Sequence record: NC_049394.1
Reading direction: 5' to 3' (one strand)
Length of the DNA stretch: 30,927 nt
Source: Escherichia phage ESSI2_ev129
Shown: positions 197 to 3,754 of the stretch, piece after piece
How the letters are laid out: each line of letters opens with the position of its first letter
Numbering within the stretch: the stretch's first letter is position 1
Program-made: the position numbers and the translations under genes
Notes under the pieces: model-generated
Database searches by the model: none
What the model was told of the DNA's origin: nothing
Seen by the model: only the letters and a program-made list of their open reading frames with translations

Positions 197-219
197 AAAA
201 AAGCCCGCTTTATGCGGGC
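197..219 (-). terminator. Rho-independent terminator closing the minus-strand late operon
   Basis: GCCCGC(203-208)/GCGGGC(214-219) 6-bp GC stem with 5-nt loop, followed on the minus strand by a T6 run (plus-strand A-run 197-202). Lies 13 nt past the stop of the last late gene at 232. Confidence 0.55.
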
Positions 220-231
220 GTGTTGTCATGG

Positions 232-1935
232 TCAGGCAATTATACTCTGGTACTTGCTCCGGGTCTGCCCGGCTTTCGTCGCCGTCTGTGTAAACTCTGC
301 GGCATTGGTTGGAGTCCCAACGGTTGGGTGTGAATGGTTCGCACATTGCTGCGCCAGCTCTGCCAGTAAATCAATGGTATCCAGCATCATGGTCAGGGCG
401 TTGATGCTCTCACTGCCAATATGGACAGTTGCCCCCATGACCTGCTGACCGCCTGCGGCCACTGATTTACGCAGTGCGGCAATCTTCTCTGTCAGGCTTT
501 CGCCAACCTCCACGGCTACAGCACCGCCCACTTTAGTGGACTGCTGTCCTGCTATGTCCGTTTCTTCGTTTCCTTCAATACTGGCCAGCCTGTTACCTTT
601 CACCGCCTGGCTGTAATCACCGGCGCTTACCTGCTGGATGGCTCCGGCCAGCAGTGTGGCGGTTCCCAGTACTGTGGTTTTATCCGTGGCTTTCACCGTG
701 GTTTTACGGCTGACCAGTTCGCGCTGTTCCGTATCGGCTTTTACGGTTCGCGCCATCGATGTTTCACTGATGGTCTGATCGGTCTGCCTTACCCAGTCTC
801 CAGCCTGCGTCACCCTCTGGGATACTTCTTCCCGCTGCTGCTGCAATTGCTCACCGGGTTTAACGTCCGGCAGGCTGGTGCCATCCGGCAGCGTCTGCCT
901 GATAAAGGGTTTATCCGGTCTGCCTCCCGTGAATGCAACCTCAACCAGCGTCCCTTCTGGCGGAAACTGAAACATACCTGAATCATTCCCGGCCATCGGT
1001 ACCGGCAACGGCACCGCTGAATAAACAGGCGTCTGATTGTCTGGATTTCCGTCTGCGTCAAGCAGCTGCACGTCCACAGCGTAACGTGGCCGGAAAGGAT
1101 CGGCAAAGTTACCGCTTTTTACCGGCTCTGAATGCGCCACGACTCTGGCCATCTTTGGCAAATGAAGCCCGGATGCCAGTTCCGGGTAATGGCTTTCAAT
1201 CTGCCGTTGCGCCGGTGTTTTCTGCAAAGGTTTACCCGTTGCGCGGTTTCTCGGCGTCCATGTGATCGCCATCGTGTCATTCGTCAGGTGAACTTTAGTC
1301 ACGCGTTCACCGTTCATCTCCACCCCTGGCCGCATAGTCTGGATCACAGGTAATGTCACAGAGTTACCGCCAGCAGCCCCCTGGCTGAACTCTGACGGGA
1401 TTTCTACGGGACGACCGGCAAACAATGATTTTTCTGCGCCTCCGACGTAAAGCGAACCATCAGGCAACTGGTACCAGATGTAATCCTGGATGCCGAACGC
1501 CCTGCCCAGATTGTTCAGCAACTGATAGCCGGTACCGTTATGGGTGAAATGTGGGATAGGGGTATCGCTGTACTGTGCATCAGGCACACTGACCGTGATC
1601 CCGCTGTTTTCTTCCAGCCAGCCCGCAATTTCACGCAAAGTCGGGTGTTGAAACGAACATGGCCACATCCTTTCAAACACACCTACCAGCTCACGAATGA
1701 ACAGACGCTGAAAACCGTTTTCTGCGGGCTGCGATCGCTCCACATACCCCGTAAACCAGCGCAAAAGCAGATCGGTATACCCCACATCCAGCCGCACCAG
1801 TTTTCCGGTGTAATCGGTTGTTGTCTCTGCGGTGATGAAGCCCCGGCCGCAGCTGTTCAGCTCCAGTACCAGGCTGGCATCCACCAGGTGAACTTCATCC
1901 GTTGAAAGGTAAAGGCGTTTTACTGGTTTCATCAT
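232..1935 (-). CDS. Baseplate hub-spike fusion protein (gpV-like OB-fold and His-rich apex, about 290-aa N-terminal extension; VgrG-like architecture)
   Basis: 567-aa ORF. Central segment PVPMAGNDSGMFQFPPEGTLVEVAFTGGRPDKPFI resembles the P2 gpV/gp5 OB-fold; C-terminal ANHSHPTVGTPT resembles the gpV apex HxH motif. ATG at 1933-1935 overlaps the upstream stop by 1 nt. Last gene of the late operon. Confidence 0.55.
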   Translation of the reverse strand: MMKPVKRLYLSTDEVHLVDASLVLELNSCGRGFITAETTTDYTGKLVRLDVGYTDLLLRWFTGYVERSQPAENGFQRLFIRELVGVFERMWPCSFQHPTLREIAGWLEENSGITVSVPDAQYSDTPIPHFTHNGTGYQLLNNLGRAFGIQDYIWYQLPDGSLYVGGAEKSLFAGRPVEIPSEFSQGAAGGNSVTLPVIQTMRPGVEMNGERVTKVHLTNDTMAITWTPRNRATGKPLQKTPAQRQIESHYPELASGLHLPKMARVVAHSEPVKSGNFADPFRPRYAVDVQLLDADGNPDNQTPVYSAVPLPVPMAGNDSGMFQFPPEGTLVEVAFTGGRPDKPFIRQTLPDGTSLPDVKPGEQLQQQREEVSQRVTQAGDWVRQTDQTISETSMARTVKADTEQRELVSRKTTVKATDKTTVLGTATLLAGAIQQVSAGDYSQAVKGNRLASIEGNEETDIAGQQSTKVGGAVAVEVGESLTEKIAALRKSVAAGGQQVMGATVHIGSESINALTMMLDTIDLLAELAQQCANHSHPTVGTPTNAAEFTQTATKAGQTRSKYQSIIA

Positions 1936-2480
1936 TAACCCAAAGCATCATTGACGGGCTTCAGCACTTTGCGTTCAAACCACGTCAGTTTTTCTTCATC
2001 TTCTCCGGCAGACTGGCCACCGGACTGTCCCACACTACCGGCAGTCTGTTTTTTTGCGGTCGTCTTACCTGTTGCCCTGGCCTCTCGCTTTTCCTGCACG
2101 CTGATATGTTCCGCCAGTGTGAATGTCACCAGCCAGGCCATTTTCCCGTCCTGCTGGGGTGCATCCAGCATTCCGCTGAACGTTGCTTCACGAAAATTAA
2201 CAGCACGGGCAACTTCATGCGCCACGCGGTACTTCTGACGATTACCACTGGCATCGGTAGCACTGGCCAGCTCAAAAATACGCTTCAGTATTTCAGGCTG
2301 TTTAAAAGGTATTTCACCGCTGATCCGCAGTTCCTTTCCCTTTGCTCCCTGCTCTGATTTTGTTGTGGCACTGGTCTGGCCGGACTGATCTTTATCCTGA
2401 AATTGCTGTGAAACAGTCACCCGCATGTTTTTCAGTTGGATGGTTTCGCCATTAAGCGCCAGTGTCGGGATCGAAGTCAT
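1935..2480 (-). CDS. Hypothetical tail-module protein (possibly gpU-like), function unassigned
   Basis: 181-aa ORF, ATG at 2478-2480 preceded by AAAGGGAA Shine-Dalgarno; overlaps the upstream gene by 29 nt and the downstream start by 1 nt. No motif recognised. Confidence 0.45.
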   Translation of the reverse strand: MTSIPTLALNGETIQLKNMRVTVSQQFQDKDQSGQTSATTKSEQGAKGKELRISGEIPFKQPEILKRIFELASATDASGNRQKYRVAHEVARAVNFREATFSGMLDAPQQDGKMAWLVTFTLAEHISVQEKREARATGKTTAKKQTAGSVGQSGGQSAGEDEEKLTWFERKVLKPVNDALG

Positions 2481-3177
2481 GAATCATTCCCTTTATTCCA
2501 TCAAGATTATCGCCAACCAGCATCATGGCAGCTGTGTAAACGGCAGACTGCTGCGGAATGTCCTTCACCAGTTCCAGTAACGTGGTACCGGTGTCTCCGC
2601 TGGCAGTAAAAACCCACGCTCTGGCACTCTTCCCCTGTAAATCATTCAGGCCGCTGGCCACATCACTGATAAGCTGGTCACGTAGCTGCGTGAACTCGCC
2701 CAGCTGTTTTTTCAGCCCTTCGATATCAAACCCGGCACCCGCCGCCTTTTGTGCATGGCTGATTGCCGCAGCAGATAAAGCTGCCCTGCTGGTTGGTACA
2801 GACAGCGGAATGGACGCAGGTAACGCAGCGGCGGTTTTCGCAGGGATCTGCATCTTTTCAATAGCCAACGCTGCGGCGGATTGCGCCAGCCGTTTGACCT
2901 GCATGAATGCCGGGGCGGGGAAAATCCCGACCAGGTTATTCAGGCTGGCCATAAAGTTTTCCTGCGTCTGTCCGGTGACCATCATAATCACCACATCCGC
3001 ATTCCCCCCTGTTCCGGCCAGGCGTTCAGCAAGATAGCGAACGGCATTAACCGGGCTGAGATATGCCCCGTTCGCTGTCTGCTGTCCCAGCCCATAAATC
3101 CACGGATGCGCAGGGACGATCGAACAGTTCAGCGCAGCAACTGAATCCGTGAAGGCCAGACGTGCTTCACGCCACAT
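2452..3177 (-). CDS. Hypothetical protein downstream of the tail fibre assembly gene (structural or accessory, unassigned)
   Basis: Track ORF is 2452..3213; start refined to ATG 3175-3177 (MWREARL...), preceded by GGAGGTG with 7-nt spacing and 5 nt after the Tfa stop. 241 aa, Ala/Gly-rich, contains ASGDTGTTLLEL. No confident family match. Confidence 0.45.
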   Translation of the reverse strand: MWREARLAFTDSVAALNCSIVPAHPWIYGLGQQTANGAYLSPVNAVRYLAERLAGTGGNADVVIMMVTGQTQENFMASLNNLVGIFPAPAFMQVKRLAQSAAALAIEKMQIPAKTAAALPASIPLSVPTSRAALSAAAISHAQKAAGAGFDIEGLKKQLGEFTQLRDQLISDVASGLNDLQGKSARAWVFTASGDTGTTLLELVKDIPQQSAVYTAAMMLVGDNLDGIKGMIHDFDPDTGA

Positions 3178-3754
3178 TTCCAGGCACCTCCGGCCACACA
3201 ATTTCTGCCGCATCTTCCGGTTGAATACGATTCAGTAAAACGCGGTATTTTTTCCATGCGGTAAGCAGCAGTGCTTCTTCTTCGGTTGCCATGTCTAAAT
3301 CAACGGCATCCTGCAATGTGGCAATGGCGTCATTGGCCTGTTTAAGCAGGCTTTTCTTTTCGGCGTCTGCCTCGCTGACTAATGCAATTCGCATGGCCTC
3401 CGCATCATCCACCCACGCCTTACCATTCCATTTTTGCAAGGCATTAGCCGGTGCTGACGTGGTTGTCCCTTCCGGGTAAGCGCCTGGCTCGGTGATCACC
3501 AGTTCATTACCGTTTTCTGTATCAAACACCACCTCACCACGGTGATCCTCACGGGAAATCCATCTTTGCTTCTCTGAATCAAAAATCGCCACAAACCCCG
3601 CTTTGATTGCCGGTGGCTTTATCGTGGTGCAGTTAGCTGGCAGTCCGGTATGCGCAGGAATAAAAGCATCACCCGAACCAATAAATTCATTCGTATCGGA
3701 ACGCAGGTTATAAACAGTAACTGTTTGATCGGTTTCACTCATTTTAAAAGTCAT
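3167..3754 (-). CDS. Tail fibre assembly protein (Tfa / P2 gpG-like chaperone)
   Basis: 195 aa immediately downstream of the tail fibre with ATGA start/stop overlap at 3754; acidic C-terminal region (..LLLTAWKKYRVLLNRIQPEDAAEIVWPEVP) typical of the Tfa family. Confidence 0.75.
   Translation of the reverse strand: MTFKMSETDQTVTVYNLRSDTNEFIGSGDAFIPAHTGLPANCTTIKPPAIKAGFVAIFDSEKQRWISREDHRGEVVFDTENGNELVITEPGAYPEGTTTSAPANALQKWNGKAWVDDAEAMRIALVSEADAEKKSLLKQANDAIATLQDAVDLDMATEEEALLLTAWKKYRVLLNRIQPEDAAEIVWPEVPGNVA

Follow-up and report, generated by a model that had tools for sequence, protein, structure and literature searches.

Tail-tube initiators, also called baseplate centrepieces or 'ripcords', include Pam3 gp17, pyocin R2 PA0626, Pa193 gp38/gp39, Mu gp43, XM1 gp11 and Milano gp25, and gp48/gp54 and P2 gpU are of this type too. 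The hub-to-wedge job is carried out in some small myophages by a LysM protein or domain, such as P2 gpX, pyocin PA0627 and the C-terminal region of Mu gp43, and T4 gp53, a LysM wedge-4 protein, is grouped with gpX and PA0627. In others it falls to a separate small protein, such as Pam3 gp18 or XM1 gp12. Simple baseplates use LysM or, alternatively, BH1a 'glue' proteins (PMC11915804). The late operon of HP1 (Hpunavirus) ends with orf33, orf34 and orf35 (PF25759; PHROGs 1677, 1398 and 2258), and a gpD+gpV fusion is stated for this phage (PMC10612066 Table S1). Our searches found no experimentally determined function or structure for HP1 orf33 or orf34, no HP1-type baseplate in the PDB by sequence, and no solved baseplate from a phage of the HP1 subgroup. 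In P2, the fibre-assembly gene G is followed by fun(Z), a single low-GC gene (32.8% vs 48% for the locus) read from the other strand. It sits between a terminator and a separate promoter, has its own transcription unit and is non-essential.

The DNA analyzed here, referred to as the window, is a stretch of 30,927 nucleotides from Escherichia phage ESSI2_ev129 (NC_049394.1). It constitutes a complete HP1-subgroup Peduoviridae genome with 96.6% identity to Escherichia phage ESSI2_ev015 (Peduoviridae, Quadragintavirus), and the P2 layout is absent. The gene order is that of HP1: sheath, tube, lysis genes, chaperone, tape measure, DUF2590/W, J, I, fibre, fibre assembly, orf33, orf34 and orf35. The late tail operon ends in three cistrons, here called ORF-A, ORF-B and ORF-C, which are each homologous to their HP1 counterpart (orf33, orf34 and orf35, respectively), and all are on the minus strand. 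ORF-A (241 aa, 2452..3177) lies directly downstream of the tail-fibre assembly gene (Caudo_TAP; 3167..3754, minus strand) and its start overlaps that gene by 11 nt, ORF-B (181 aa) occupies 1935..2480, and ORF-C (567 aa, 232..1935) is the last gene of the operon. As the earlier note had claimed, ORF-A and ORF-B overlap by 29 nt (2452-2480), while the ORF-B stop and the ORF-C ATG share one base (TAATG). The end of the operon is marked by an intrinsic-terminator-like hairpin with six G-C pairs and a T run (203..219, minus strand), 13 nt past the ORF-C stop. ORF-A (55.5%) and ORF-B (51.3%) do not stand out from the other tail genes in GC content. Both are real genes and not chance ORFs, because they have 249 and 322 homologues in protein databases, respectively, relatives of ORF-A are encoded on 475 IMG/VR contigs, and mean column identity is 77-78% in alignments spanning down to 65% pairwise identity. 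The earlier labels Ala/Gly-rich and Lys/Gln-rich hold roughly for ORF-A (Ala 17%, Gly 8%) and are modest for ORF-B (Lys 8.8%, Gln 8.3%).

ORF-C is an HP1 orf35-type fusion of hub and central spike, in which a gpD-like N-terminal hub part is joined to a spike made of a gpV/VgrG OB domain and a gp5-type beta-helix. It matches phrog_2258 (E 2.5e-276) and HP1 orf35 (41% identity, E 3e-155) as well as the C-terminal beta-helix of T4 gp5 in the PDB (E 4e-7), and the matches to Phage_base_V and Gp5_C are weak.

The gene preceding this hub, ORF-B, has the Shine-Dalgarno sequence AAGGGA 7 nt upstream of its ATG. The earlier note could not name either unassigned protein as a tail protein, which is wrong for ORF-B. 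By sequence, ORF-B is assigned to Pfam PF25759, the 'HP1_ORF34 baseplate complex protein', with a score of 186 bits where the cut-off is 27 and with coverage of model positions 2-176 out of 180. This is a family that was matched by all 127 diverse ORF-B representatives. It is 41% identical to HP1 orf34 (E 1e-39) and has the same neighbours (orf33 and orf35). In public records, proteins homologous to it carry the names 'adenine glycosylase' or 'nucleoid DNA-binding protein'. The AF2 model is confident for a core with a tail-tube fold at approximately residues 5-125, and beyond residue 125 it predicts only two helices (127-142 and a conserved C-terminal one at 167-179) separated by a disordered Lys/Ala/Gly-rich linker. 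The best structural matches of the core include the pyocin Ripcord PA0626, of which P2 gpU is a sequence homologue (E 3e-13). ORF-B thus combines two marks of tube initiators, an N-terminal tail-tube fold and adjacency to the hub gene, and it stands directly upstream of that gene, the same arrangement that U and D have in P2 and phiCTX.

The relation of ORF-B to gpU does not extend to detectable sequence similarity. Pfam Phage_P2_GpU (PF06995) gave no match to ORF-B at E<=0.1, and the orf34 profile (127 sequences) scored hhalign probabilities below 1% against P2 gpU, phiCTX gpU and their pair, and found nothing in the tube protein or the hub of the window. A published HHpred search related an orf34 homologue to Phage_P2_GpU at 15% identity, which its authors marked as uncertain (PMC10612066 Table S1). 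Since there is no gpU profile match, we file ORF-B as a gpU analogue by fold and not as a member of PF06995. The structural role 'such as a gpU analogue' suggested earlier is therefore borne out for ORF-B by the predicted tube fold and the PA0626 match, and is probable for ORF-A. Collectively, predicted fold and gene position identify ORF-B as a tail-tube initiator and baseplate centrepiece. The orf34 homologue went undetected in virions of phage ACA1 (PMC10612066 Table S2). ORF-B has a pI of 9.3, and one could speculate that its basic, Lys-rich arm rides on the tube tip and binds incoming DNA, like the structurally equivalent Mu gp43/N protein.

At its longest, the frame of ORF-A covers 253 aa (2452-3213), but the start at 3177 (241 aa) is the one that the evidence backs. 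It is preceded by a GGAGG Shine-Dalgarno sequence (3187..3191, minus strand) 9 nt upstream of the ATG, all 241-aa homologues start with MWRE, and the annotation of ESSI2_ev015 uses the same start. Sequence similarity (E 1.2e-75 to phrog_1677; 29% identity to HP1 orf33 over residues 24-233, E 7e-21) and gene position place the protein in the HP1 orf33 family. Its profile also aligns with phiO18_44 (hhalign 97.7%) and with an unannotated ORF of phi3 (94%). ORF-A had no match in Pfam, and NCBIfam had no family for either protein. PDB sequence searches for both proteins, run with single sequences and with the profiles A3, A2 and A5 (the last built from 127 diverse sequences), yielded no significant match. 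A concatenated query of HP1 orf33 and orf34 returned almost only orf33 homologues, and it improved the alignment of ORF-A and not that of ORF-B. The AF2 model of ORF-A is of moderate confidence (pLDDT 68.5, poor at residues 109-183) and suggests that a helical hairpin is inserted into an alpha/beta domain; compared with PDB and BFVD structures, it gave no structural match. Cys18, a candidate catalytic residue, is not conserved in the Pasteurellaceae homologues. With hhalign probabilities that were all below 2%, we rejected the idea that ORF-A arose as a 'second ripcord' by divergence from a paralogue, be it ORF-B or another of the genome's tail proteins.

The earlier note placed both genes in a slot like that of P2 Z/fun. 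Read in this way, they would be accessory or lysogenic-conversion cargo in a variable position after the fibre-assembly gene, and both that location and the lack of a Pfam family or structural match for ORF-A fit such a reading. However, the two genes are co-directional and overlap both neighbours without an internal terminator or promoter, the strong terminator comes only after the hub-spike gene, and the GC content is operon-like as opposed to the 32.8% of fun(Z). Neither protein is similar to Fun(Z) or to PADLOC defence families. The likeness to P2 is limited to following the fibre-assembly gene and is not one of homology. Additionally, ORF-B has the predicted tail-tube fold, and orf33-orf34-orf35 occupy exactly this place in HP1, whose genome type the window shares.

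Comparison across relatives also speaks against a variable slot. In every lineage of the HP1 subgroup that we examined, an orf33 homologue is found directly 5' of an orf34 homologue, as seen in HP1, HP2, Pasteurella phages, K139-like Vibrio phages (orf37/orf38 at the same position in K139), Yersinia YenM_324, Salmonella SW3/SI7, Aeromonas phiO18P and Pseudomonas phi3. The pair thus keeps its position from Haemophilus to Pseudomonas phages, and it is intact with identical offset in 79 of 80 related IMG/VR viral contigs. The overlap between the two genes, too, recurs in HP1, YenM_324, phiO18P, phi3, K139 and these contigs. Among these relatives, it is the fibre-assembly gene that varies, with a median identity of 54% and detection in 59 of the 80 loci. 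The record of vB_YenM_324 labels the orf33 homologue 'structural protein'; we found no literature on this phage. In purified ACA1 virions, the orf33 homologue gp46 was detected with two spectra, in this one distant phage (PMC10612066 Table S2). The earlier note had counted detection of both proteins in virions, with tail-protein folds, against accessory function; the fold is predicted for ORF-B, and the virion mass spectrometry is weak and concerns the ORF-A homologue only. We regard the accessory reading as extremely improbable. ORF-A is a core gene of the tail operon, because its synteny is conserved, its GC content is typical of the operon and gp46 was detected in virions.

In our preferred reading, which we consider likely, ORF-A, ORF-B and ORF-C together make up the 'hub' module in the inner baseplate of a contractile tail of HP1 type, with ORF-B as tube initiator and ORF-A most likely as plug or glue. 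Six ORF-B tube-fold domains would form a ring atop the trimeric hub-spike ORF-C, by analogy with known baseplates, and this ring would template tube polymerisation. The C-terminal arm of ORF-B, with its helix, flexible linker and conserved terminal helix, may extend outward to the J-like and I-like wedge proteins. ORF-A would be present in few copies per virion and be confined to the HP1 subgroup. It would most likely take the hub-to-wedge role of BH1a, and might help to keep the wedges attached to the hub up to the moment when fibre binding sets off contraction. The oligomeric state and virion position of ORF-A and ORF-B, like the glue role of ORF-A, are features that we infer.

The glue role is left vacant by the other late genes in the window, all of which have an assigned function, and ORF-A is the sole unassigned late protein. 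LysM and Phage_tail_X domains were searched for in ORF-A and all late ORFs and none was found, gpX gave nothing below E 1 against all ORFs of the window, and the ORF-A profile (A3) reached an hhalign probability of 0.4% against gpX. Since the genome has no LysM protein, no candidate is better than orf33 for the 'plug/glue' that would join hub and wedge in the HP1-type baseplate. The ORF-A C-terminus contains what resembles half a LysM motif (LVGDNLDGIK compared with LQGDTLDAIC in gpX), which we take as chance given the 0.4% probability and too few following residues for a LysM domain. In favour of this role, a metagenomic protein, P0375, seems to combine an orf33-like C-terminal region with an orf34 domain (hhalign probability 61%), although this is a single sequence that could be a gene-calling artefact.

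Alternatively, ORF-A could be a non-structural assembly factor that serves the hub-spike or fibre mounting as a chaperone or scaffold and leaves only traces in virions. Its position between the fibre-assembly gene and the hub genes would suit this, as would the mere two spectra of its homologue, the low confidence of its central helical region and its faster divergence (29% identity to HP1, compared with 41-60% for the other baseplate proteins). However, the spectral count per mass of gp46 (0.09) is like that of gpW (0.08) and gpV (0.06), and proteins not expected in virions went undetected according to the ACA1 authors (PMC10612066). ORF-A is also without similarity to the Caudo_TAP and Phage_TAC chaperones of the same genome, which would be left with no hub-wedge connector, neither LysM nor plug, if ORF-A were an assembly factor. 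We consider this alternative unlikely.

The vicinity of the fibre and fibre-assembly genes, along with a sequence more variable than that of the hub proteins, might instead point to a peripheral baseplate protein, e.g., a fibre-docking adaptor or wedge decoration. Yet ORF-A is steady among close relatives (73-98% identity, fixed orf34 overlap), while the fibre-assembly protein has the low median identity given above and the fibre drops to 46% in some loci. Moreover, ACA1 has an entirely different antireceptor with a diversity-generating retroelement, and its orf33 homologue still adjoins orf34 (PMC10612066). A peripheral location is thus quite unlikely, and the role of hub-to-wedge glue remains our preferred reading for ORF-A.

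The finding is largely ordinary, as these are the known, conserved orf33 and orf34 of HP1-type tails, one a predicted tube initiator and the other a baseplate protein of which little is understood. This type of prophage is present in 44 of 5,426 complete E. coli genomes, or approximately 0.8%, and in many Enterobacteriaceae. Annotations should be corrected to tail-tube initiator for ORF-B and to tail structural gene, instead of cargo, for ORF-A. HP1-subgroup tails lack a LysM module described as universally conserved, and the sole candidate replacement, orf33, has no recognisable fold. A more far-reaching idea, possible but doubtful at present, is that the orf33 family is a kind of baseplate protein not recognised before, with a fold unlike solved components. 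Docked on the flexible C-terminal arm of orf34, it might provide hub-to-wedge locking across the HP1 half of the Peduoviridae in place of LysM proteins (gp53/gpX) or Ig-like plugs. Solving an HP1-type tail, or engineering such small tails as tailocins, would require placing the orf33 protein.

Compared with known systems, ORF-A resembles the plug/BH1a and LysM wedge-4 proteins in being small, virion-borne (as its homologue) and encoded beside the tube initiator and hub genes. We found no sequence or fold similarity of ORF-A to Pam3 gp18/XM1 gp12 or to gpX/PA0627/gp53, its predicted fold being neither an Ig-like sandwich nor LysM, and the correspondence is one of putative function only. The ORF-A gene precedes that of the tube initiator, whereas plug/glue genes of the compared systems follow theirs. 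Additionally, ORF-A is approximately of two-domain size compared with the single Ig-like domain of the Pam3 plug and may therefore do something else or more. Mu gp43 and Milano gp25 carry an eight-helix bundle and a LysM module, whereas ORF-B has neither, also by LysM search; its arm is a disordered linker of ~25 residues followed by one short conserved helix. Klebsiella phage MMNM ('minimalist') was considered as a relative and proved unrelated. The described size and layout of Pam3 gp17, a 182-residue chain, match the 181 aa of ORF-B with its tube domain and two C-terminal helices (PMC9942802). The closest counterparts are HP1 orf33, orf34 and orf35, homologues at 29%, 41% and 41% identity, which share order, overlaps and position at the late-operon end with the window and differ in sequence divergence only.

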